Virus record (IMG/VR): IMGVR_UViG_3300045988_180981
Span: 1-37,188 of that record
DNA length: 37,188 bases
Source of the DNA: a virus
Reading direction: 5' to 3' (one strand)
In this document: one piece after another, positions 972-37,188 of the stretch
How the letters are laid out: the number at the start of each line of letters is the position of its first letter
Position numbering within the stretch: the stretch's first letter is position 1
Position numbers and translations under genes: made by a program
The notes under the pieces: model-generated
What the model was told of the DNA's origin: nothing
Seen by the model: only the letters and a program-made list of their open reading frames with translations
The model's database searches: none

Positions 972-1004
972 CAAAATAAAAAGAGGGGAGCAGCTCGCCC
1001 CCCT
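972..1004 (-). terminator. Rho-independent terminator closing the early operon
   Basis: Minus strand reads GGGGGGCGAGCUGCUCCCCUC followed by UUUUUAUUUU, immediately 3' of the stop codon of gene 1021-1644. Confidence 0.5.
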
Positions 1005-1020
1005 GATTATTGAACGCTTT

Positions 1021-1644
1021 TCAATAGTTATACCATTTAGACCTTTTGGACTCGCTATAGGAATCTTCTAATAATTTAAGCTCTTTAGCGTTTTTCCGCG
1101 GCTTTCCCTTAAATTCGTGGACGATTGAATAGTTATACACTTTTTTATCTTTTTGCCATCCCTTCGTGATTATGGCAGCTTTGCCTTTTATTTTGGCTAA
1201 AAAGTTTTGCTGGCATTCGTAGATTCTCGCCCACTTTTTAGATCCCCTATTTTCGGTCCAATAATAAGTTATAATCGCGTATTTGTCGGAACATTTAGCA
1301 ATTTTCGCTTCTTCCATTTTTGACCTCGTCCATCTATCGATTTGGTCGAGGTCGTCAAGGTTGATTTTAGAGAAATCGTCTACTACATCGTAGAAATCAG
1401 TTTCATTGTAATACTTGCCGGTGTGATGCCAACTAGTCTTTTTCAAAAAAGCGTGTTTTACCGTTTTAGCAGATAGCCGCTTAATCCTTTTCATATCCTC
1501 GTCACTAGATTCAAGATCTCCCGAGTCAATTAGCTTCTGCAAGCGCTCGATAATCTCGCTTTTCGTCCATTTCGAAAAAGGGCGCTCGCCCATGTCATAG
1601 GCTTCTGCCGCCCTCTCGCTCATCCTTTGCCCAATGTATCCCAT
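1021..1644 (-). CDS. Hypothetical protein (207 aa); last gene of the early operon
   Basis: ORF with AAGGAG 13 nt upstream of the ATG; no motif recognised. Confidence 0.6.
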   Translation of the reverse strand: MGYIGQRMSERAAEAYDMGERPFSKWTKSEIIERLQKLIDSGDLESSDEDMKRIKRLSAKTVKHAFLKKTSWHHTGKYYNETDFYDVVDDFSKINLDDLDQIDRWTRSKMEEAKIAKCSDKYAIITYYWTENRGSKKWARIYECQQNFLAKIKGKAAIITKGWQKDKKVYNYSIVHEFKGKPRKNAKELKLLEDSYSESKRSKWYNY

Positions 1645-1668
1645 AATCTTATTTTTCTCCTTTTTTAT

Positions 1669-1694
1669 CGCCCCCTTTTGTGAGGGTGGGGGCG
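1669..1694 (-). promoter_or_regulatory. Copy A of a 29-bp exact repeat forming a GC-rich hairpin (CGCCCCC-12 nt-GGGGGCG) directly 5' of the SD and ATG of gene 1021-1644
   Basis: GCCCCCTTTTGTGAGGGTGGGGGCGAACC is identical at 1670-1698 and 2056-2084. Confidence 0.6.
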
Positions 1695-1705
1695 AACCCT
1701 GTTTT

Positions 1706-2035
1706 TTATTGATTGTCGATTATCGCCTTGATGATGTCCGCGGTGCTCATGCAATCCGCGTTCTTTTCTAGGTATTTGCAAATGTCGTACTTGATGGTTT
1801 CTCCTACTAAGTTTCGGTAGCCAGTCGTCAATACGATGGGGTGCGCTCCTTTTTCATCGGTAATTAGGTAGCAATCGAAGTTCCATCCATAATAACCGCA
1901 ATTGTAGCCGATTTGCTGGACACATCCGCGAGAATGGAGCGCGTTAATCGTGTATTGAAGCGAGCAATACGAGGCGGAGCGGTGCGTTCCGCAAATGTCG
2001 TTCAAGGCTTCTTTTTTCGTTAATTTTAAGTTCAT
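1706..2035 (-). CDS. Small papain-like (C39-like) cysteine peptidase domain protein (~110 aa)
   Basis: Cys motif CGTHRSASYCSLQY (CG..S....L.Y) and His motif HPIVLTTGY (resembles the HYVVL.G of C39 peptidases). AAAGGAG 8 nt before the ATG at 2035. The track ORF extends to 2149 across the hairpin repeat, so it was truncated. Confidence 0.35.
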   Translation of the reverse strand: MNLKLTKKEALNDICGTHRSASYCSLQYTINALHSRGCVQQIGYNCGYYGWNFDCYLITDEKGAHPIVLTTGYRNLVGETIKYDICKYLEKNADCMSTADIIKAIIDNQ

Positions 2036-2055
2036 TTTTTTTACTCCTTTATGAA

Positions 2056-2079
2056 GCCCCCTTTTGTGAGGGTGGGGGC
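2056..2079 (-). promoter_or_regulatory. Copy B of the 29-bp hairpin repeat, directly 5' of the SD and ATG of gene 1706-2035
   Basis: Same 29-mer as copy A, in the same position relative to AAAGGAG and the ATG. Confidence 0.6.
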
Positions 2080-2141
2080 GAACCATGTTTTTAGTCCTCG
2101 TCTTCTTCGTTTTCGTCTTCTTTTCCTCCTTGCCTTTCGGC

Positions 2142-2180
2142 GCTATCATAGTAGCCCTAAGAGCAATCGTAAGTCAACAA
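2142..2180 (-). promoter_or_regulatory. Promoter-like motif TTGACT...TTGCTCTTAGGGCTACTATGAT, related to the AGGGCT family; hexamer spacing is non-canonical
   Basis: Sequence similarity to P3 and P4; resembles CCAAGGGCTATGATAGTGG at 36707-36725 on the plus strand. Confidence 0.25.
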
Positions 2181-2314
2181 GAAAAAGCAAAAATTTTGAA
2201 ACTTTTTTGATCTTCTTTTTTCGTTGACGCTCTTCTTTTAGGCGAGATCTCTCTATGCCGCGCCCCCCCCTATTTTTCGCCCTTTTTCTCGCGATCTCCC
2301 CGAACCCCCTTACG

Positions 2315-2380
2315 CACGCATAATGCGCCCATTCGCGCAATTCGCGCCATGCCCGTGCGCATAATGAGCACCCATAGCGC
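2315..2380. promoter_or_regulatory. Two copies, 40 bp apart, of a near-palindromic GC-rich site: CGCATAATGCG in copy 1 (perfect 11-bp odd palindrome) and GCGCATAATGAGC in copy 2 (one-mismatch variant of GCGCATAATGCGC)
   Basis: Copy 1 is a perfect 11-bp odd palindrome; copy 2 has one mismatch in the flanking arms. Confidence 0.35.
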
Positions 2381-2399
2381 CCGTATGCACGAAAAAAGC

Positions 2400-2640
2400 C
2401 GTCAAACCAACGGGTTCAACGGCTAATCCAACGGTCAACGGTGACGGCCAACGGTGGTTTCAACGGCAACGGCAACGGTGACGGCCAACGGTGACGGCTA
2501 ACGGTGACGGCCAACGGCAACCGCTAACGGTAACGGCCAACGGCTACAGCAAACGGGTGGGGTAAACGGGAACGGCCAACGGTGGTTTTCTTTCCTCGTA
2601 CGGATAAAAGCAACGGCACGACCTAACGGTGACAACAACG
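2400..2640. repeat. Iteron-like array: about 20 copies of the pentamer AACGG, including four tandem 13-bp units AACGGTGACGGCC
   Basis: Counted by eye at 6-13-nt spacing. The distal part overlaps the 3' end of the rusA ORF. Confidence 0.7.
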
Positions 2641-3062
2641 GAGGGTGTCAAATCGTAGTGCTTCGCCATGCAAACATTAACCACTTGGGAATCGTCAACA
2701 AAGGCAATCCCATTCAATCCATCCAAAACGGCTTTCAAAACGTTGTCCAAGTCGGGCTTCTTCGTGGGCAATTCCTCACCGCTCAACTTCGCCAAGCCAT
2801 GCTTGTTCGGTTGCCCCTTCGAGTTGTAATCCGCCTTCTTCAAGCCGAACCACGCCATGACTTCCACCGCGATAGGCCCTGTGAGTGGCTTCGCCTCGGG
2901 GTACTTCTCCTTGAACTCATGGGCGAACCTCGCTTCGTAAGAGAGCGTTTTCGATGGGGTGTAAATGTGCGTGTGCCCCCCGAAGGAGGTTGCCCTAGGC
3001 CTTTGCTTTCCCATCGGCTCTCCCAAAACGTTAATCGTGTACTTAAATTCTTCTTCTGCCAT
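2544..3062 (-). CDS. rusA: RusA-family Holliday junction resolvase
   Basis: GKQRPR near the N-terminus and KPDLDNVLKAVLDGLNGIAFVDDSQV, which are RusA hallmarks. GAGGAG 10 nt upstream of the ATG at 3062. The C-terminus runs into the AACGG repeats, so the 3' extent is uncertain. Confidence 0.75.
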   Translation of the reverse strand: MAEEEFKYTINVLGEPMGKQRPRATSFGGHTHIYTPSKTLSYEARFAHEFKEKYPEAKPLTGPIAVEVMAWFGLKKADYNSKGQPNKHGLAKLSGEELPTKKPDLDNVLKAVLDGLNGIAFVDDSQVVNVCMAKHYDLTPSVVVTVRSCRCFYPYEERKPPLAVPVYPTRLL

Positions 3063-3076
3063 ATCTTCAAAACTCC

Positions 3077-3367
3077 TCAATAGCATTTATAACGCATTAT
3101 GTGGTTTTTATTCTCGTCCAAACCCTTCGATTCAAACCTTTCGAGCAATGTTGATTCTTTGATATTTCCTCGTGAGGTGTTTCGCACATCTTCGACTTTC
3201 AACAACTCAATGATTCCTTTGAACCCAGTGCTCATTTCCTGCTCGCACGTCTTGACGAAGCATAGGCTGGCGCCATCGCGGTCTTGCTCCTCATACTCGG
3301 TTACTTTGGTGAAGTCCGCGTATTCGGAAGTTGAGCGCACTATGTAATAAGGTACTTTCATTTCCAT
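3077..3367 (-). CDS. Hypothetical protein (~96 aa)
   Basis: AAGGAG 9 nt upstream of ATGGAAATG; start taken at the internal Met of track ORF 3077-3391. Confidence 0.55.
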   Translation of the reverse strand: MEMKVPYYIVRSTSEYADFTKVTEYEEQDRDGASLCFVKTCEQEMSTGFKGIIELLKVEDVRNTSRGNIKESTLLERFESKGLDENKNHIMRYKCY

Positions 3368-3486
3368 TTTGTTTATCTCCTTTTTAGACAATTAGAGGGC
3401 TTTCTTTCAATCAATCGAACAATTTGCCATGGGAAGCGACAATTCGCCTCCATGAGCCTAGAAATGGCTTTTAATGGCATTGTGGG

Positions 3487-3945
3487 CTATTCCTTCCGCT
3501 CATTGCGCATGAGTTCATCCCAAACTTCTTGGTCGAACGTGTCGATGGACTTCACCGCCTTGGTTAGATTCCCATTGCGGATGTCGCCAATAGCACCGCT
3601 TTCCATCAATTCCCTCAAAGTCATTTTCGATGGCTTGTTGAAGATGAAGATAGGGCAATCTTTGTTGCACGCTATTCCCATGACGAACTCGCCCACGTTG
3701 CAAATCCCGATGTTGTGGCTACCCATGTTGTCATGGCCGATATTTCCATCGCCAACGTTGTAATCGCCAACGTTGTTCGATCCATAGTTGCCATTGCCTT
3801 TGTTTTGGCTTCCGTGGTTGCAATCGCCATGGTTGCAATCCCCAACGTTGAAGTCTCCCTCGTTCCAAGAGCCGTGGTTGCAATTGCCTCGGTTCTCAAC
3901 GCCCTTGTTGAGAGCGCCTAAGTTGTTGTCTCTAGTCTTGCTCAT
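3487..3945 (-). CDS. Pentapeptide-type beta-solenoid repeat protein: 17 consecutive N-x-G-x-x pentads; candidate DNA-mimic (Qnr/MfpA-like) protein
   Basis: Gly at residues 10,15,...,90 and Asn at 8,13,...,83 without a break. The 15-nt periodicity is also visible in the DNA. Start overlaps the upstream stop (ATGA at 3942-3945). Confidence 0.7.
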   Translation of the reverse strand: MSKTRDNNLGALNKGVENRGNCNHGSWNEGDFNVGDCNHGDCNHGSQNKGNGNYGSNNVGDYNVGDGNIGHDNMGSHNIGICNVGEFVMGIACNKDCPIFIFNKPSKMTLRELMESGAIGDIRNGNLTKAVKSIDTFDQEVWDELMRNERKE

Positions 3946-4427
3946 GCTTTTGAATCCTCCTCAATCGCTTTTTTCTCGCTCATCATTTTCTGGATTCTCC
4001 TCAATAAATCGGGGTGGGTGACAATCACCTCGTCAAAGTCTTCCGCTTCCGCTATCGCGAAGAAGATAGTCCTTGAGCTCAATTGCCTTCCCCATTCTCC
4101 TTCTTTCGGCAAATCCTCGAAATCGACACCTTCCCATTGTGTTGGGTCAAAATCAATGATGGCATGGGTTTTCAAGGTAACTGCTTCGATTGTCCTATCT
4201 TCGTTTCCTCTTTCGTCCGTAGATACGAAAACTTCAGCAATTTTAGTGGAATATGCCCTCATCAAAACGCTTCCATTATTCGCTTTCATGTTTCCCTTAA
4301 CCGTTTCCGCAATGTTGGATTCCGCCTCTTTTGCGAGTTCAAGGGATTCATATTCCCCTTCGAAGAAAGGCTTTTTCGCTCGGCTAATCATATCGCAAGC
4401 GGTCAATACGTATTTGTACATTTTCAA
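3942..4427 (-). CDS. Hypothetical acidic protein (161 aa)
   Basis: Minus-strand ORF, translationally coupled to the pentapeptide-repeat gene. Confidence 0.55.
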   Translation of the reverse strand: MKMYKYVLTACDMISRAKKPFFEGEYESLELAKEAESNIAETVKGNMKANNGSVLMRAYSTKIAEVFVSTDERGNEDRTIEAVTLKTHAIIDFDPTQWEGVDFEDLPKEGEWGRQLSSRTIFFAIAEAEDFDEVIVTHPDLLRRIQKMMSEKKAIEEDSKA

Positions 4428-12454: not shown

Positions 12455-12901
12455 CTAGTTGCAAGGGCTATTTTCCAAGTTTTCCACAAAGGAATCCACA
12501 AAGCGCTTGGCGAGCAATTCGCCCTCTTCGGCATTGTCCGCCATAATCCCTTGCCCGTCCTTGCGGATTTTCTTCGTAATGCAAGATACCTTCACCAAGG
12601 CTTTCATGGCTTTGTCTTTGAGGGTCTTGCGGTAGGCTAGCGTTTCCTCCAAGTTGCCCATGTGGTAGGTGAAGTTGTCGATGATTATTACTTTGTCCGC
12701 TCCCCAATCGCAATTGATGGCGGTTACATCGCTCCAGATTTGAAAGCATTTGTCATGCACCTTTGGGTTGTCGGAGTAATTGTAACCGTCCGAATAGGTC
12801 GCTTTCTGGTAGTTCGACACGATTTCCTCTTGGGTGGTGACTTTGCCTTGAAGAGAGTTTTTCAAGATGAGGTTGTAGGTCGCTAATTGTCTATTTGTCA
12901 T
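12455..12901 (-). CDS. Hypothetical protein (148 aa)
   Basis: Minus-strand ORF. Confidence 0.5.
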   Translation of the reverse strand: MTNRQLATYNLILKNSLQGKVTTQEEIVSNYQKATYSDGYNYSDNPKVHDKCFQIWSDVTAINCDWGADKVIIIDNFTYHMGNLEETLAYRKTLKDKAMKALVKVSCITKKIRKDGQGIMADNAEEGELLAKRFVDSFVENLENSPCN

Positions 12902-13448
12902 TTTCGTTCACCATTATCTTTTCGCCATCGGGCGTTTTCACCCAAATGGGCTTATCGTCTTTCAACATCACAATGTATTTCTCAACTGGCGGATAATATG
13001 GCATTGTTATCGGGAACATCTTGTTCACCAATCTCGAACCAACCGAGGAAATGAATGGTATTTTCTTGGGGTCTTCTTCGTCATAGCAAACAACCCTATC
13101 GACATCGTTGTAAGTCACTTTCCCATCAAGTGTTTCCCTTCTGAAAACGGAACACATCCTATTGCAAGAAAGATCGGATTTGAGACCCTGTTCTTTTAGG
13201 TAGCGTGGGTCTTCTTGCGTTATCCCCTCTTGGTCTAAAAAGTCTTCATCGACAATCGGGGTGAGGGGTAAGTCATTCAACAATCTCGTGAGAAGATGAG
13301 TAGTAATATTCCAACTAAATCCGCTATGGCTGTCTTTTGCCATCGACATAAACGCTCTTAAGGCGCTATCCGCACACATTTGTCCGTAAATGTCTTGTTT
13401 TTTCTTAAAGAGTTCGACTTCTCTTTTCGCTTCTTCGCTCATTGTCAT
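12891..13448 (-). CDS. Hypothetical protein (185 aa)
   Basis: AAAGGAG 8 nt upstream of ATGACAATG. Confidence 0.55.
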   Translation of the reverse strand: MTMSEEAKREVELFKKKQDIYGQMCADSALRAFMSMAKDSHSGFSWNITTHLLTRLLNDLPLTPIVDEDFLDQEGITQEDPRYLKEQGLKSDLSCNRMCSVFRRETLDGKVTYNDVDRVVCYDEEDPKKIPFISSVGSRLVNKMFPITMPYYPPVEKYIVMLKDDKPIWVKTPDGEKIMVNENDK

Positions 13449-14648: not shown

Positions 14649-15308
14649 TCAATCCTTTATATATTCGTAAGTTCCGGTCTCTTTGTTAAAGCGGAATTCG
14701 TTGGCATTTCCCCATAGTTTGAACGAGAGTTCGTAAGCCTCTTTTGAATCCGCAACGAATTGCTCAAAGGATACGCACGTTCCGTTTTTGTATTCGGCTC
14801 TTCCAGTGACACGTCCATTGTCTTCGTCCGCCCATTCATGCTCGAACGAGAAATCTTTGTGCATTTCCGCAAGTTTTTGAATAATGGGGGTAGGCGGTGT
14901 CCAAGCGGTGAGAAGCTCAATCGTGTCGCCATCGATTTTCGTTTCCCCTGCGTTCCATTTACATCCCCAATGATGAATACTCCAATCGAACCAAGTGGCG
15001 AATCCGTATTTTTGGAGATTCTCGAACGCGCGTTTTCCAAGTTTAATGGTGTCTTCCAAATTCCCTTCGTTTCTCTTTTTCAATTCTTCGACTTTGTGTT
15101 CATCAATTATCTTTTCTGGAGAGGTGATGGAAGCGATATATAACTTAAGCCCGTCTCTCGTTCTAGGGCCACATTCTATTCTCAAATCATCGGGCATTGT
15201 CTCAATGGTATTGAAGTCGAAGTCGCCATCGTTGTCGAGGTGCTTTTGGATTATTGATTTGGCGTTCTTTCCTTTTATGGTCAATCTATTTTTGATGAAA
15301 TTCGGCAT
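14649..15308 (-). CDS. Hypothetical protein (219 aa) with a conserved W.DW..HHWGCKWNA motif
   Basis: Motif seen; the family could not be named with confidence. Confidence 0.45.
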   Translation of the reverse strand: MPNFIKNRLTIKGKNAKSIIQKHLDNDGDFDFNTIETMPDDLRIECGPRTRDGLKLYIASITSPEKIIDEHKVEELKKRNEGNLEDTIKLGKRAFENLQKYGFATWFDWSIHHWGCKWNAGETKIDGDTIELLTAWTPPTPIIQKLAEMHKDFSFEHEWADEDNGRVTGRAEYKNGTCVSFEQFVADSKEAYELSFKLWGNANEFRFNKETGTYEYIKD

Positions 15309-16911: not shown

Positions 16912-17220
16912 TTGGTTTCCCCTAGGACAAAAGCACTCTCCCTTAATGGTTTTCTAGGGGAAAGAAAAAAGAGAACGAAAAGAAGGTTCTCTTAAGAATC
17001 TTTTAAGAATAAGTTAGAGTGTTTAATTGAACAATACTTACTCATATATGCAATTGCTTACTATGAACGCAATTAAAAAAGAAATCCGTTACTTTCTTTA
17101 ATCGTGCGCGAAAAAAGCCGTATCCTTTCCAATTCATGAGCAGGAGCGGAGTTGCCCCTTACGGGGCAAAGAACGAACGCGCACGGAAAAAAGAATTTTC
17201 TAACGGACTTTCATGTGGTA

Positions 17221-17302
17221 GTTTTCCACTTTTCCACAAAAGTTTTCCACTTTTCCACATTGAATCAAAAAGTTTTCCACAATAACCAAAAGTTTTCCAC
17301 AT
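17221..17302 (+). promoter_or_regulatory. Cluster of six direct DnaA-box-like 9-mers: TTTTCCACA x4 (match TTATCCACA/TT[AT]TNCACA) and TTTTCCACT x2; candidate origin of replication
   Basis: Copies at 17222-17230, 17230-17238, 17243-17251, 17251-17259, 17273-17281 and 17293-17301. A degenerate GGTTTTCCAT lies at 17337. An adjacent AT-rich stretch (16980-17100) is a possible DNA-unwinding element. Confidence 0.6.
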
Positions 17303-19457: not shown

Positions 19458-19653
19458 TTTCCTTCTCCTCCTGCTCTTTCAAAAGAGCGTTGTATTCTTC
19501 CATCGTGATTTCCTCGAAGTCGCTCGGCTTCGAGAACTTCCCGATGAAGATTTCGTAGTCGGAGAGCAATTCCCCGTCCTTCGATTTGAGGGCATAGCCC
19601 TCTTTGGGGGCTAACCCCCTAGTCTTTTCGTTGTAAATCATGCCAATGTCCAT
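19432..19653 (-). CDS. Small hypothetical protein (73 aa)
   Basis: ORF in operon context; SD is weak. Confidence 0.35.
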   Translation of the reverse strand: MDIGMIYNEKTRGLAPKEGYALKSKDGELLSDYEIFIGKFSKPSDFEEITMEEYNALLKEQEEKENADRHEIE

Positions 19654-20330
19654 CCTTTGTTCGTGGCTATAGCCTTGTCCTCGTCCGTGAGTTTGTCGAG
19701 GTTCGTAGAACCCATTTTTAGGGTTTTCGTTCCGCTCGTTTGTGCTTTGAGGTTGCCGATGATTTCGAGCAGAGCCTCACGGGTGAATTTGGTGGAATAG
19801 TGAATGTCGAGCTGCGCGTTGATGTTAACCATGTGGATTGCTTCTAGTTTTTTGCAAGAATTGAACATGGAATTCAGGTTCGTAACGTTCGATGCGTCGA
19901 ATCGCGGAACGGTTGTGAGGCTGGAGCAATAGTAGAACATACTATTCATGTTCTCCACTTTCGATGTATCGAACAATGGAACGGTGGTGAGGTTTGAGCA
20001 ACTATTGAACATGTAAGACATGTTCGTCACTTTCGATGTGTCGAACAAAGGTACGGTGGTGAGTTTGAAGCAATAATTGAACATGGAATTCATGTTCTCC
20101 ACTTTCGATGTATCGAACAATGGAACGGTGGTGAGGTTTGAGCAATTAATGAACATGGAACTCATGTCCGTCACATTAGCGGTATCGTCATACTTCCAGC
20201 ACCCTTCAAATGAGGAGGCTAAACTTTGCGCGCACTTACCCCCAGCCTCGAAGAAAGCCTTCATCGATGTGATTTGCTTCTCAACGGTGTTCGTCACCGC
20301 GACTTTTTTGCTTCCTAAGTACAATGCCAT
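19638..20330 (-). CDS. BspA/DUF285-type leucine-rich-repeat protein; five ~23-aa repeats (FDTSKVTNMSYMFNSCSNLTTVPL); receptor-binding accessory candidate
   Basis: Repeat consensus D.S.V.NM..MF..C..LTTVP; AGGAGGTG SD before the ATG at 20330. Confidence 0.7.
   Translation of the reverse strand: MALYLGSKKVAVTNTVEKQITSMKAFFEAGGKCAQSLASSFEGCWKYDDTANVTDMSSMFINCSNLTTVPLFDTSKVENMNSMFNYCFKLTTVPLFDTSKVTNMSYMFNSCSNLTTVPLFDTSKVENMNSMFYYCSSLTTVPRFDASNVTNLNSMFNSCKKLEAIHMVNINAQLDIHYSTKFTREALLEIIGNLKAQTSGTKTLKMGSTNLDKLTDEDKAIATNKGWTLA
19850..20160. repeat. About 4.5 tandem 69-bp nucleotide repeats (75-100% identical) encoding the LRR units
   Basis: The 55-nt stretch CATGTTCTCCACTTTCGATGTATCGAACAATGGAACGGTGGTGAGGTTTGAGCAA is identical at 19955-20009 and 20093-20147. 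Confidence 0.7.
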
Positions 20331-20332
20331 AA

Positions 20333-22225
20333 TCACCACCTCCTAATGGTAACGGAAGAACCGCTCTCGGGAATATCGCTCCACGATGGTGCTCCGTCCA
20401 CTACGGAGAGGAATTTTCCGTTTTGCGTAGAATCGGCTGCAAGCAAAAAACCAGTTGGCAAAGCAATTACCGAACCGCTTTTAGTTGTTCCTTCAATCAT
20501 AACAACATAACTTATAGCGCCTGAAAAAATGAATCCTGCGTACAATTTCGTCTCTGAGGCGAAAACGGTCATTAAAATTTTTCCAAGGTCTGGAATATTC
20601 AAAAAGAAAATCTCATCATTTGGCTCTGACCCAATGCTAAAGTCGGTTTGATTTCCACTAGTGCTTGTAATAGTAGCGTCAATCGTCTTGATTTTGCCTT
20701 CGTATTCCTTGTCCGCGTATGCCTTCGTGATGAGTTCGTAATTCAACACGTGAGCGATTTCGGGGTCTTCGCTCACTTGGGAAGAACGACCGTAAATCGC
20801 CCCATTATCTGCCCTGATGGGAATGGAATTTCCGATATTTTGAAGGCTCGCTTGGATGAACTTGTCAGCGTAAGACGATTCCGCGCCCCCTGCTTCGCAA
20901 GCGTAAACAAGGGTTTCGGGAGTAACCGAAAGCCCAGATTTCCTATTTAATTTCTCCGATTGAAGAGCGGTGATGTTGTCCGCGTTCCTCTTGCCCTTAT
21001 CGCCTGCGTAAGCGGTCTCGGAGGTTTCGCCCAACGCTAGGGAAGAGCCGATTTCAACGTAGACCGTTCCGCCCCAACGATAGGTTTTGTTCGTGTCCAA
21101 TGCGATGTAAATCTTGTTCACTTCGCCCGTGGTTGGGAAATCGTTGAAGGTTGGAAATTCCAAAACGTCCGACACGTAGGACGGAAGTTGGGAAGTGGGG
21201 ATTTTGCCGTCAAAGTCCAAGGAAGCGACACCCCTGCCTCCTCTTTGCCCAAGCAATCGCGAAGTGAGGAAAATTTCCCCTGATACTGGCATATAACTAT
21301 CGGCCACCCAACGTATTAGGTTGTTGTTGAGCGAAAGCCCGTCCAAAGTGAATACCGCGGAAGTAGCCATAGCCGAGGGACTTCTTCCATTGAACGTGAT
21401 TTTCGGAGAATTGATGAAGGAACGCAACGTTAAATTTGCAGGGCCAACATAGTTCCCCTCAAACTTGAATATCGGCTCGAATTGCTCAACTCCTGCGACT
21501 TCTTGCATTTGCTTAAGCGTTTCGGAATATAGCGTGAAATCAACGGGCGCTCCCTCACCTTTGGCATACCATGCGAAAGAGCCTTCGCCTTCCGCGTTTT
21601 TCTTTCTAAGGAACTTGTCCACCGCCAATCCATCGAGCGAAACCCCTTCGAGTTTGTCTCCGATTTTTTGGAAAACGGAACTCGTCTCGCTGTCCGCGGT
21701 TTCCTTCGCAAGAATCATTTGCCCCTCGGATAGGTTTGGCAAGTCCTCGGTCGCTTCCGCGAGCGTATCGTAGGAGCGCATATTCGAGCGAGCGTATTGG
21801 AGTTGGTAGTCCGCCATCATCGCCCGAAGAGCCTCGTATTGGTCTTGGGTGATGGGGTCTCCTCCCCTCCCCGTTGTCTCGTTTACGTATAGCGTTACGG
21901 GGTAGGTGAATAGCGTGGTCTTGTCCGAGTTGAAAACTTGGATGGAAAGAGCCACGTCTCCTTGGTATTCCGTAACCACCGCGGTTATGGTGATTCGGTA
22001 GCCCTCATAGACCCCCGTTGATGTCTTTATTTTGTTGGTGAAAGCTCCCGTTAGGGAAACAACTTCGTTGTTGGGCAATTTGAAGTTCCCGTCCGCGGTG
22101 TATTCGTCCACGCTTTTGCCAACAATGGAAACGTCAATGAAATTGACACCATCCGAATGTTGGTTTATGTAGTCCGTCAACTGGCTTTCGGAAACCGATC
22201 CGTCTTTATTGAAGATAATGTACAT
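20333..22225 (-). CDS. Tail fibre / receptor-binding protein candidate (630 aa)
   Basis: Beta-rich, Gly/Ser/Thr-rich; sits in the tail module directly upstream of the LRR protein. Confidence 0.4.
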   Translation of the reverse strand: MYIIFNKDGSVSESQLTDYINQHSDGVNFIDVSIVGKSVDEYTADGNFKLPNNEVVSLTGAFTNKIKTSTGVYEGYRITITAVVTEYQGDVALSIQVFNSDKTTLFTYPVTLYVNETTGRGGDPITQDQYEALRAMMADYQLQYARSNMRSYDTLAEATEDLPNLSEGQMILAKETADSETSSVFQKIGDKLEGVSLDGLAVDKFLRKKNAEGEGSFAWYAKGEGAPVDFTLYSETLKQMQEVAGVEQFEPIFKFEGNYVGPANLTLRSFINSPKITFNGRSPSAMATSAVFTLDGLSLNNNLIRWVADSYMPVSGEIFLTSRLLGQRGGRGVASLDFDGKIPTSQLPSYVSDVLEFPTFNDFPTTGEVNKIYIALDTNKTYRWGGTVYVEIGSSLALGETSETAYAGDKGKRNADNITALQSEKLNRKSGLSVTPETLVYACEAGGAESSYADKFIQASLQNIGNSIPIRADNGAIYGRSSQVSEDPEIAHVLNYELITKAYADKEYEGKIKTIDATITSTSGNQTDFSIGSEPNDEIFFLNIPDLGKILMTVFASETKLYAGFIFSGAISYVVMIEGTTKSGSVIALPTGFLLAADSTQNGKFLSVVDGAPSWSDIPESGSSVTIRRW

Positions 22226-34709: not shown

Positions 34710-36158
34710 TCACCTGACGGTTTTCGCGTTTCTAGTGAAATCGTAAATCTTCTCGCTTGAGGTTCGGATGTTGAACCATTGCATATTCTCGATTCGCCCA
34801 TACCATGCGTTCACCGCGTAGGTGAAGGCATCGCAATCATCGTTTGGAAGGGCTGGGTCATATCCAGTGCCAGAATCGTTCCACAGCAGGTTTTGTAGCT
34901 GATGGTGCAACGGGTTCACAGCGTTCACCCAAGTTTGGCGCACGTAATCGTAGTAGCCCCCATAGTCGATGATGTTCACCATATCGTTGGATAGGGCGCT
35001 TTGCACCACCGCGACCATTTGGGGGATTCGGTTCTTTTTGATCGGCTTCACCAAGGCTCGCGGAGAGAAGAAGTAGTTGCACGCTTGGCGCAAGTCCGCG
35101 GAAGCCTCGTCAATCACCATAAGTATCGGTATTTGCCTAAGATAAGGGGTCTCGTACAATTCCTTGCGAGTTCCCAATGCCCAAGCCTTGCACAACTCAT
35201 CGAACCATTTCTGCAAAAAGTTATCCGCCAATTTCTGCGAGCCGAACACCCCGTCCACCGTGGGGTCGTGGTGGAATATCGGCCCAACGAAGGATTGCCC
35301 GTTGCTCATGATGATGAGCGGAACGAATGATGTGCAGTCTCGCGTTACCGCGCCATCGCCTCCAATCACGCAACCAACGGGGTAAACGCCCTTGATTTCC
35401 ATGAAGTGGCGCACCTGATCTAGCGTGTATTTGTGGCGGTTCTCGTTGTACATGATGTAGACGCTACCAAGCGAAGCGGACGGGTGTCCCATGTAGAACC
35501 ACTCGTAGTACTCTCGGTTCGTGTATTTGCACTTGAGGATTTCCTTGATGTCATAATCGTTCAAGAATGGGATGATGTCCTCCCAAGTAAATTCGAGTTC
35601 GAGCCAATCGCGGTCTCTGGCTTTCTCCTCTTTGAGCTGGTTGAACCAATGCGCCTTTTGGGGAGGTGGGTTTCCAAGGATCAATACTTTTGCGTCTCTC
35701 CCGAAGTTTCTCCGGAAAGAGGCGAGCGTTTGGTCGAAGTGCAAACGGGAGGGCAATTCTTGGGCTTCTTCCATCACCACGATCTTGATGGGGTGGTCGG
35801 GCTTGAAGCCCTTCGTTCGGTCGAGGTTCGAGCCACCGATTCCCATGAAATAGATTTTGTTGAGGTTTCCGCGCTCGAAGCGCAGAGGGGAGCGCCTCTC
35901 GGAGAACTCGTTCCCCAAGCCGTTTGGGAGAGAGTCCAGCGCGTCTTTGTATTCCGCGAAGCACGAATCCGCCATCGAGCCGTATGAAGCTCGGCAATAG
36001 ATTTGGTCGGTGTTCGGGAATTGGAACGCGAACAAAGTCGATATGATGGCCGCGGTTTTCGTCTTTCCTCCGATTCGTCCGCCCGTTATCAGGTTGTAGA
36101 TTTTGTCGGAGGAGAGAAGCGCTTTGGCTTTCGAGGTCAATTTGATCGTTTCCGCCAT
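34710..36158 (-). CDS. terL: Terminase large subunit
   Basis: Walker A LITGGRIGGKTKT near the N-terminus; size ~480 aa; follows the small terminase gene with a stop/start overlap. Confidence 0.8.
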   Translation of the reverse strand: MAETIKLTSKAKALLSSDKIYNLITGGRIGGKTKTAAIISTLFAFQFPNTDQIYCRASYGSMADSCFAEYKDALDSLPNGLGNEFSERRSPLRFERGNLNKIYFMGIGGSNLDRTKGFKPDHPIKIVVMEEAQELPSRLHFDQTLASFRRNFGRDAKVLILGNPPPQKAHWFNQLKEEKARDRDWLELEFTWEDIIPFLNDYDIKEILKCKYTNREYYEWFYMGHPSASLGSVYIMYNENRHKYTLDQVRHFMEIKGVYPVGCVIGGDGAVTRDCTSFVPLIIMSNGQSFVGPIFHHDPTVDGVFGSQKLADNFLQKWFDELCKAWALGTRKELYETPYLRQIPILMVIDEASADLRQACNYFFSPRALVKPIKKNRIPQMVAVVQSALSNDMVNIIDYGGYYDYVRQTWVNAVNPLHHQLQNLLWNDSGTGYDPALPNDDCDAFTYAVNAWYGRIENMQWFNIRTSSEKIYDFTRNAKTVR

Positions 36159-36160
36159 CT

Positions 36161-36700
36161 TCACTTCTCCATGACCTTGCCATCGATTTCCGCAATCGTC
36201 TCCCGTTCAAGTTTGAGCATTCTCTCGGAATCGGATTCCGGATTTACCAACTCGATTTTGATGGAAGGAGCTTCGGGTGCTTCTGGCCTAATGGGCGGAA
36301 GTTCCCTCTTCGCGTACATCTCTGGCATACGTCTTTCGAGAAGCCACGCGGCCGCCTTCCAATCGCCCATCTCCGCGGATTTGAGTATCACCCCGACTTG
36401 GTTGCGCTCGAACTCCATGAGAGACCCCTTGGCCTCGCAATAGAACTCCGCCATCGCCATTTCCCTCTCATTTCGTTGCTTGTATGGCATGAGCAGACAA
36501 CGATAGCCCTCTTTGAGCGCCCTATCGTATTCGGGTTTGGAGATTCCCAAGGCTTCGCACGTCACTTTGGGGTCGCGACCCTCTCGGAGGCCGTCCATGA
36601 GTTGGGTTCTTTTCTCATCGTCCAACCAAAACTCCGTGTCTTCCAATCGTCTTTGGATTTCGTGTTTCTTCGGTTCAATCGCTTTCGGCATATAGACCAT
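36161..36700 (-). CDS. terS: Terminase small subunit candidate (~180 aa). The N-terminal 93 codons of track ORF 36161-36979 are treated as non-coding.
   Basis: HTH-like segment VTCEALGISKPEYDRALKEG; sits immediately upstream of the large terminase gene. The start at MVYMPK has no clear SD, so the 5' end is uncertain. Confidence 0.5.
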   Translation of the reverse strand: MVYMPKAIEPKKHEIQRRLEDTEFWLDDEKRTQLMDGLREGRDPKVTCEALGISKPEYDRALKEGYRCLLMPYKQRNEREMAMAEFYCEAKGSLMEFERNQVGVILKSAEMGDWKAAAWLLERRMPEMYAKRELPPIRPEAPEAPSIKIELVNPESDSERMLKLERETIAEIDGKVMEK

Positions 36701-36913
36701 TATATCCCAAGGGCTATGATAGTGGAAGAGAGAAGCCGTGGAAGCCCGTTCCGCGCACGAATCACGCACAAGTGAGCACGATATTGCCCATCTTTGATTG
36801 TTCATAAGCGAGATGGATGGGCGATGAGAGAATGGCTTCATCGCGTAGCGCGCCTCCCCATAAACAATCCGTAGAAAGAGGAATGGGCAAGACCGTTTTA
36901 CCGATAAACCGCT

Positions 36914-36950
36914 ATTGTTCATATAAAAGAATATTTTTTTATAGAACAAT
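36914..36950. promoter_or_regulatory. 37-bp imperfect palindrome ATTGTTCATATAAAAGAATATTTTTTTATAGAACAAT about 215 bp upstream of terS; candidate late-operator or packaging-protein site
   Basis: The outer arms ATTGTTC / GAACAAT are exact; the inner A/T arms are offset by 1 nt. Confidence 0.45.
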
Positions 36951-37069
36951 CTCGCGCACCCCCGTAGCGAATAGTTCATTTATTGAACAATCTATAACGC
37001 GTATGCGCACATATGCTCGCACGGGGCTAGGCGGAGTTATCTAGGGAATGGGAATTACTTAAGGAAATA

Positions 37070-37188
37070 CCAACATCGCACGCGCACACGGGCGATTTGG
37101 GATTTACGAAGTAAAGCCCATGAAAGTAATGCCACCGCGGAAAAAAGGGAAAAAAATTCGAAGGGGTTGGGTAGCCCCGAAAAAAAGG
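37070..37188. repeat. Right copy of the 119-bp direct terminal repeat. Either genuine terminal redundancy or overlap from a circular or circularly permuted assembly.
   Basis: Identical to 1-119. The window stops where the repeat stops, so the true repeat could be longer. Confidence 0.9.

Follow-up and report, generated by a model that had tools for sequence, protein, structure and literature searches.

At the end of the early operon of the phage genome analysed here (a stretch of 37,188 nt, hereafter the window) we identified a non-coding, single-orientation run of short units that is conserved across the phage lineage with 9–26 units per genome, and that we regard as a putative cis-acting recognition array with lineage-specific motif variants. 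What was observed directly comprises the array, its conservation, the motif differences between lineages, and the order in which terminator, boxes and promoter lie beyond it. Together with the invariant box region and the promoter, the array forms the clearest control element of the genome, and it is at the same time the left border of a hot spot at which cassette genes are exchanged.

Genome organization and search scope

The first 118 nt of the window recur at 37071–37188 as a terminal direct repeat; the window is thus a circularly closed assembly of ∼37.07 kb. Every convincing ORF lies on the minus strand, and in this direction the terminase genes are followed by the structural and lysis genes and, after an intergenic region, by the early genes (Table 1). 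Beyond rusA come the array, ∼500 nt of non-coding DNA, two small genes, ∼1.1 kb of non-coding DNA and then terS again. TerL belongs to the Pfam family Terminase_3, and the early genes specify, amongst others, an HTH_3 protein, SSB, a Sak-like annealing protein, a C5 methyltransferase and a pentapeptide-repeat protein. No integrase was detected in the phage, and in the early region neither an initiator nor a late regulator was recognisable, nor any repressor except the Cro/XRE-type HTH_3 protein. Among the early minus-strand genes at 12891–13448, 14649–15308 and 3487–3945 there were matches of the anti-defence type, namely to Tad3, a Thoeris inhibitor (Pfam E = 6e-15), and to a DUF1281_C/Api92-like domain. 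Few early proteins are as well conserved as the pentapeptide-repeat protein (97 % identity in the relative L005+L086 and 90 % in L087), and its gene lies immediately upstream of rusA in most relatives.

All relatives described below were found in human-gut metagenomes, and the clade is known solely from this source. Using nt 1000–4000 of the window as a nucleotide query and a portal-size protein, zero matches were obtained among 50,697 deposited phage records, and the same region and the portal protein gave zero matches to deposited plasmids. An exact-sequence look-up of RusA likewise returned no record.

Table 1. Features of the window, listed in minus-strand order
Feature	Position	Strand	Remarks
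terS and terL (small and large terminase)	36979..34710	minus	First in minus-strand order
Structural and lysis genes	down to 17551	minus	After the terminase genes
Early genes	16911 down to rusA (3086..2544)	minus	Intergenic region between them and the late genes
rusA (RusA Holliday-junction resolvase)	2544..3086	minus	Pfam RusA domain at residues 22–155 of 180
Repeat array	2409..2641	minus (coding)	26 units of 6–7 nt, core CCGT(T/C)
Three tandem 13-mers	2474..2512	minus	+ strand AACGGTGACGGCC/T, i.e. coding-strand CCGTTGG+CCGTCA; fourth copy at 2437–2449
Intrinsic-terminator-like hairpin	2397..2424	minus	12 pairs, then TTTTTT at 2391–2396
GCGCATTATGCG-like near-palindromic boxes	2305..2369	minus	2316–2328 and 2357–2369, with 0 and 1 mismatch
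Sigma-70-like promoter TTGACT-18-TACTAT	2148..2177	minus	232 nt downstream of the array; equivalents in L168 and L260
Two cassette genes behind the promoter	1021..2035	minus	Unrelated genes in relatives
∼109-aa cassette ORF	about 2035..1706	minus	Likely start ATG near 2035, after AAAGGAG
207-aa cassette ORF	1644..1021	minus	
Terminator closing the cassette unit	984..1004	minus	terS leader next

Composition of the array

Between 2409 and 2641 the pentamer AACGG occurs 21 times on the + strand and never on the opposite strand, whilst its core ACGG is present 26 times in this orientation and once inverted, the lone inverted unit being the 3′ arm of the terminator. In the rest of the 37-kb genome, CCGTT/AACGG is distributed over the two strands with 49 and 61 copies. 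When we ran 60 first-order Markov simulations, the maximum per 250 nt was four copies for AACGG and eight for any 5-mer; with 21 copies counted, the earlier claim from a sequence-only reading that some 20 dense AACGG repeats exceed chance is therefore borne out. On the coding strand the units (CCGTTG, CCGTTGG, CCGTTAG, CCGTCA and others) form a continuous run, in which gaps of 12–13 nt consist of one good and one degenerate unit. Spacings of 6, 7, 9, 12 and 13 nt alternate irregularly, and the positions of ACGG show a dominant period of 6.5 nt (vector strength 0.67). Tandem Repeats Finder reported periods of 6, 7, 13 and 26 within 2429–2584, and the base composition of the array is 58 % G+C. 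The 13-mer AACGGTGACGGC(C/T), previously described as four tandem copies, is indeed present four times (at 2437, 2474, 2487 and 2500), but only three of these are in tandem. Searching viral contigs with an exact 18-mer taken from the 13-mer core yielded four chance matches, none of them with an array.

The array extends into the final ∼32 codons of the rusA ORF. As the Pfam RusA domain stops at residue 155 of 180 (∼nt 2622), the overlap is mostly with the non-conserved C-terminal tail (residues 156–180), which is translated from the array. Thus, of the proposal that the array overlaps the RusA C terminus and thereby constrains the protein, the overlap stands, whilst most of what is overlapped is tail beyond the Pfam domain. 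In L087, L250 and L251, two units are located within conserved RusA codons, where they encode Val-Ala-Val-Ala-Val.

A coding hexamer repeat was ruled out, as 13 of the 25 spacings within the array are not multiples of three and break the frame, whereas nearly all short spacings in the dense CCGTT arrays of 57 other viral contigs are multiples of three, marking those arrays as coding repeats. These (CCGTTG)n/(CAACGG)n repeats of the Gly-Asn type share the dense hexamer with the phage array and keep the frame, which the array does not; the 18-mer (CCGTTG)3 is common in viral contigs. A GCCTAGAA array in L244, as well as dense repeats in L099, L176, L206 and L222, also proved to be coding and unrelated to the CCGTT array. 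Elsewhere in the window, a tandem repeat of 72/144 nt (4.4 / 2.2 copies; 19860–20174) lies within a 233-aa ORF (20339..19638) and is a coding repeat of a tail- or receptor-region protein.

Conservation and variation in related phages

Eight related gut-metagenome phages possess an array of the same type at the end of the early operon, with 9–22 units each (Table 2). The core is CCGTT in six of the eight and CCGTA throughout in the other two. As eight related phages carry such an array at this position, a recent slippage artefact was ruled out, and the expectation that relatives would keep the repeats whilst varying their number was met by close and distant relatives alike (9–26 units). The closest relative, L248, has 11 units compared with 26 in the window, and amongst close relatives the arrangements differ through whole-unit insertions and deletions. 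In each of the nine arrays the units share one orientation, save for one to three inverted units at most, which are always distal; all arrays have a best period of 6.3–6.7 nt with a mixed 6/7-nt pattern; and all are found at or just beyond the 3′ end of the last early gene. In L260 the array lies 3′ of a 140-aa ORF downstream of rusA, a gene unrelated to that of the window, and in L168 and L500 it follows the gene for a 105–109-aa CxxC protein, ∼1 kb beyond rusA. The 105-aa gene of L168, used as an anchor in viral contigs, gave no match, whilst a large protein search retrieved one additional array, that of L500. The L005+L086 contig closes by a 70-nt overlap within its own repeat array.

Table 2. 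Arrays in the window and its relatives (identities are to the window, except for L500, whose neighbour gene is compared with that of L168)
Phage	Identity	Units	Core
Window	Reference	26	CCGTT/C
L005+L086 (single circular contig)	RusA 87 %	20	CCGTT/C
L087	RusA 77 %	19	CCGTT/C
L248	TerS 93 %	11	CCGTT/C
L250 (L255 identical)	TerS 85 %	18	CCGTT/C
L251	TerS 85 %	21	CCGTT/C
L260	TerS 50 %, RusA 63 %	22	CCGTT/C
L168	RusA 58 %	12	CCGTA
L500	Neighbour gene 83 % identical to L168 counterpart	9	CCGTA

Two further relatives, L244 and L245, have no such array in the sequence examined (13.6 kb for L244); the TerS and RusA proteins of L244 are 81 and 73 % identical to those of L260. Directly after the rusA terminator of L244 (4140–4440), in place of a CCGTT array, we observed three copies of GGGGGACAAA and a purine-rich stretch, possibly a repeat element that occupies this boundary but is unrelated to the array.

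Terminator, boxes and promoter beyond the array

The array runs directly into the intrinsic-terminator-like hairpin, the 5′ arm of which is formed by the final two array units and the 3′ arm by the lone inverted unit. Within the first 19 kb, no other terminator-like site of the coding strand is as strong as this hairpin. It is invariant in the five phages that were aligned (the window, L005+L086, L248, L250 and L251), and the same terminator sequence is present in L087. L168 and L500 have a strong terminator hairpin at the start of the array, with most units downstream of it, and L260 has no clear terminator. The boxes come next, including the 25-nt block GGCGCATTATGCGTGCGTAAGGGGG (2305–2329), and are followed by G/C runs, an AT-rich stretch and the promoter, the −35 element of which (GTTGTTGAC) is conserved. 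Amid varying surroundings, the terminator, this block and the −35 element are invariant in the five phages. Two near-palindromic sites near 2315–2380 and a promoter-like motif downstream of the array had been noted in the sequence-only reading, and both were recovered here, the latter as the minus-strand site 2177..2148. The order of array, CGCATA-type boxes and promoter is the same in L168, L500 and L260. CGCATA/TATGCG-type boxes and then a sigma-70-like promoter come after every array, the promoter at a distance that ranges from ∼150 to 360 nt across phages.

A possible protein-bound array at the early/late boundary

We tentatively favour a reading in which the array is a stretch of duplex DNA that is coated by a sequence-specific oligomerising protein and that acts on transcription at the early/late boundary; protein binding, duplex DNA as the target and a transcriptional output are each what we infer from the arrangement. 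An oligomeric protein, encoded by the phage or its host, would recognise the array units and coat this stretch of duplex DNA. The coated array could then insulate or reinforce the early-operon terminator, control the promoter 150–360 nt downstream, or both, and transcription from this promoter would cover the exchangeable cassette genes and might read through into the late genes. In support of this, the copy number is far beyond chance, the orientation is pure, and the nine arrays occupy an equivalent position and differ by whole-unit indels; furthermore, L260 shares the CCGTT core despite its different upstream gene. The out-of-frame spacings, the boxes and promoter beyond every array, the invariance of terminator, block and −35 element in five phages, and the likeness of the layout to Ltr sites (see below) also count in its favour. 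As the relatives keep the word and vary its copy number, the array is probably a docking site for a putative protein, and the CCGTA in every unit of L168 and L500 is what would be expected if the binder and its sites change specificity together. The absence of a consensus promoter just before terS makes the boundary region a plausible control point for the downstream genes.

A number of observations speak against a protein-coated array of this kind. A rigid filament assembling cooperatively on duplex DNA would not usually have such irregular 6/7-nt spacing, the promoter distance is too large and too variable for a classical activator, and L244 and L245 do without an array in the sequence examined. 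Moreover, the first units are inside rusA, such that a roadblock there would cut into rusA transcripts. Candidate binders were sought by adjacency and by all-against-all phmmer comparison of the window, L260, L168, L500 and L244, and none was shared; nor does any gene consistently adjoin the array across relatives. Scans of ∼40 proteins against Pfam, PHROGs, NCBIfam and PDB sequences gave a DNA-binding match only for the HTH_3 protein (72 aa), the presence of which in the array-less L244 counts against the favoured reading. Given the irregular spacing and the lack of a binder in these searches, readings at the level of RNA, of an origin and of a scanned motif keep some probability and are weighed below.

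The layout resembles that of the sites of the Ltr late activators of Gram-positive phages (RinA, ArpU and LtrC), in which direct repeats begin right behind the coding sequence of the final gene past the replication module and are followed by a terminator and then a promoter (PMC3753634); in the phage too, the repeats are distal to the upstream coding sequence and precede terminator and promoter. Ltr sites, however, have 2–4 repeats of 7 nt (PMC3753634) as opposed to 9–26 units, and the gene upstream of them specifies a small basic activator, whereas the phage array follows rusA or an unrelated gene. The Ltr promoter also drives terS directly, whilst the phage promoter drives cassettes, with terS 2.5–3.9 kb away. 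With copy number, neighbouring genes and promoter target all differing, we do not assign the array to the Ltr family.

The conserved array with its CCGTT and CCGTA lineage variants offers a ready bait for the putative early-to-late switch factor. In addition, as the mixed 6/7-nt spacing is unlike the rigid arrays of known duplex-DNA binders, the putative binder might turn out to recognise its sites in another way.

Alternative explanations

It is also conceivable, although unlikely, that the array works at the RNA level, the early transcript carrying CCGUU(G) repeats near its 3′ end that bind a TRAP- or HutP-like oligomeric protein and thereby cause terminator read-through into the cassette and late genes. 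As the final two units make up the 5′ arm of the terminator, binding of such a protein would block hairpin formation. This arm is invariant in the five aligned phages and has the same sequence in L087, every unit is on the sense strand, and terS has no consensus promoter directly before it. Much as in the Bacillus trp leader, with its 11 (G/U)AG repeats bound by TRAP, short sense repeats with variable spacers of 1–2 nt adjoin a terminator in otherwise unstructured RNA (PMC4027176); z was +0.79 for the array, and Rfam searches and RNA folding found only the terminator. TRAP, however, binds triplets in a 5′ leader, promotes termination and is a known cognate protein, whereas the phage array has a five-base core, sits at the 3′ end of an operon and not in a leader, and has no Rfam match and no candidate RNA-binding protein in the Pfam, PHROGs and NCBIfam scans. 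Nor is the arrangement conserved: sense-strand repeats overlap the terminator in the window, L005+L086, L087, L248, L250 and L251, but most units are downstream of the hairpin in L168 and L500, and L260 has no clear terminator. A previously undescribed phage cis-element, namely a one-directional pad of 6–7-nt units for a flexible oligomer or a scanning enzyme, is about as unlikely. Such a pad might serve a ring- or filament-forming protein that binds nascent RNA or a single DNA strand and thereby toggles the early terminator, or it might act as a polar barrier or as a decoy that engages a host DNA-scanning nuclease or defence protein. A clade with such a pad may also be borrowing host chromosome signals, i.e. 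the DnaA-box cluster and parS core described below. That the array is a replication origin (the second origin suggested in the sequence-only reading), its units being short iterons for an unrecognised initiator, we consider unlikely. SaPI origins have 6–12 penta- or hexanucleotide iterons immediately downstream of the rep ORF (PMC9371898), and the phage units likewise come just after an ORF; in addition, the array ends a recombination/replication module (Sak-like annealing protein, SSB, RusA), contains one to three inverted units at its distal end, and belongs to a phage in which no initiator is recognisable anywhere, hence a novel one may exist. The SaPI iterons, however, are in opposed orientation around a central AT-rich region and follow a rep helicase gene (PMC9371898), whereas the phage array has no central AT-rich region, has its inverted units at one end and has no rep gene. 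Genes for Rep, a helicase, a primase or a replisome organiser were found neither next to the array nor elsewhere when the early genes were scanned against Pfam, PHROGs and NCBIfam. The array is neither bordered nor interrupted by AT-rich DNA; the nearest such stretch lies 150–250 nt off and coincides with the promoter, and what follows the array directly is the terminator and GC-rich boxes rather than an AT-rich element. L244 manages without an array in the 13.6 kb examined, and a cluster of DnaA boxes near the GC-skew minimum (see below) is a better candidate for the origin.

Quite improbable, in our view, is a motif that is read singly on unwound or scanned DNA, whether for Chi-like attenuation of AddAB, as a guide or stop for a translocase, or as a decoy for a defence protein. 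Strict uniformity of orientation combined with irrelevance of spacing would suit it, as would the reliance of the phage on recombination functions (Sak, SSB and RusA), its anti-defence genes (e.g. Tad3-like) and the lineage-specific motif, which could reflect different hosts. The Chi sequence of Bacillus subtilis is AGCGG, and the + strand core (A/G)ACGG is one base away from it. Outside the array, however, CCGTT/AACGG is neither over-represented nor strand-skewed, no exact matches to Chi, KOPS or SRS motifs and no skew beyond codon usage were found, and naturally occurring tandem arrays of Chi sites or of decoys are not known to us. The heptamer CCGTTGG does occur outside the array eight times on the coding strand and zero times on the other (2.3 expected per strand); as all copies are in genes and mostly span Val-Gly codons, this is probably a codon effect. 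We give an equally small chance to a slippage-prone microsatellite, homogenised by concerted evolution and without a function of its own. Close relatives do differ in copy number by entire units (11 versus 26), perfect hexamer runs are present and L244 lives without an array, but the same core and position persist at 50 % TerS identity, where the flanks can no longer be aligned; pure hexamer runs do not exceed six copies, all nine arrays being 6/7-nt mixtures; and units extend into conserved RusA codons in L087, L250 and L251. A role in packaging, be it as a small-terminase recognition site or another packaging-related repeat block, is very unlikely. Recognition sites of the pac and cos type commonly contain short repeated boxes, examples being the pac hexamers of P1 and the blocks of short repeats that adjoin the terminal repeats of T7; a Terminase_3 TerL and assemblies that close on themselves at differing breakpoints also fit headful packaging, which needs a pac site. 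The array is, however, ∼2.5 kb from terS in the window and ∼3.9 kb in L260, with opposite-strand genes in between, and no array was found in 13.6 kb of L244 in spite of its L260-like TerS, so that the small-terminase site suggested by the sequence-only reading was not upheld. The conserved non-coding leader directly upstream of terS would be a more conventional place for pac. Least of all do we expect a plasmid-type centromere or anchoring site of a non-integrating prophage. The absence of an integrase and a perfect parS core at 559–572 would be compatible with it, and precedents exist in the centromeres/operators of pSM19035, which are arrays of 7–10 contiguous 7-bp heptads, and in tubC, which is composed of direct repeats (PMC5016525, PMC9499535). 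In the former, many very short contiguous units serve as both operator and centromere, and the small dimeric ribbon-helix-helix ParB protein omega coats them as a protein helix around the DNA (PMC9499535, PMC5016525). Omega heptads require strict contiguity (PMC9499535), are of mixed orientation, overlap the regulated promoters and have a ParA partner, whereas the phage array is a 6/7-nt mix of single orientation that lies 150–360 nt from a promoter (232 nt in the window), overlaps no partition-operon promoter and precedes genes that are exchangeable between relatives. Scans of Pfam, PHROGs and NCBIfam found no gene for ParA, ParM, TubZ, or a ribbon-helix-helix or TubR-like protein. The suggestion of a partition site accordingly has little support, and of the proposed iteron- or centromere-type architecture there remains a real, non-coding, iteron-like array, the centromere part being weakened by the lack of par-gene matches and the irregular spacing.

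Other elements of the non-coding regions

At 17220–17301, in the gap between late and early genes and beside AT-rich DNA (17000–17100), we found six copies of AGTTTTCCAC(A), the last three of which are ∼21 nt apart. The DnaA-box consensus is TTWTNCACA, and four of the six copies match it, whereas the remainder of the genome has two such matches. After detrending, the cumulative GC skew reaches its minimum at 16942. The cluster is likely a host-DnaA-dependent origin or an early control region. A scan of viral contigs with the DnaA-box pattern gave >100 unrelated matches, with the relative not among them.

The terS leader comprises ∼1.1 kb of non-coding DNA (1–1020 and 36980–37070), and leader and terS together are 89 % conserved in a relative. 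Rfam returned no match above threshold for it, and a consensus promoter is absent, including directly before terS. Its + strand between 61 and 480 is 70 % purine, compared with 45 % genome-wide, and contains many GGGGAAAG-type words. The leader also includes the perfect 14-nt parS core GTTTCACGTGAAAC mentioned above, which is equally perfect in L005+L086 (L086:1337–1350). In L248, L244 and L260, by contrast, the core is degenerate, and L250 and L251 lack it altogether, so that its significance is uncertain.

The genes behind the promoter are exchanged between relatives, which have unrelated genes in their place. When the 147/109-aa and 207-aa ORFs were used as search anchors, no conservation in relatives was seen; both were therefore rejected as the array binder. 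Each of the two small cassette genes is preceded by one copy of a hairpin element, GCCCCCACCCTCACAAAA(A)GGGGC (2056–2092 and 1670–1707), which also occurs in the relative at L086:676–713 and could act in RNA processing or stability, or mark a border of recombination.
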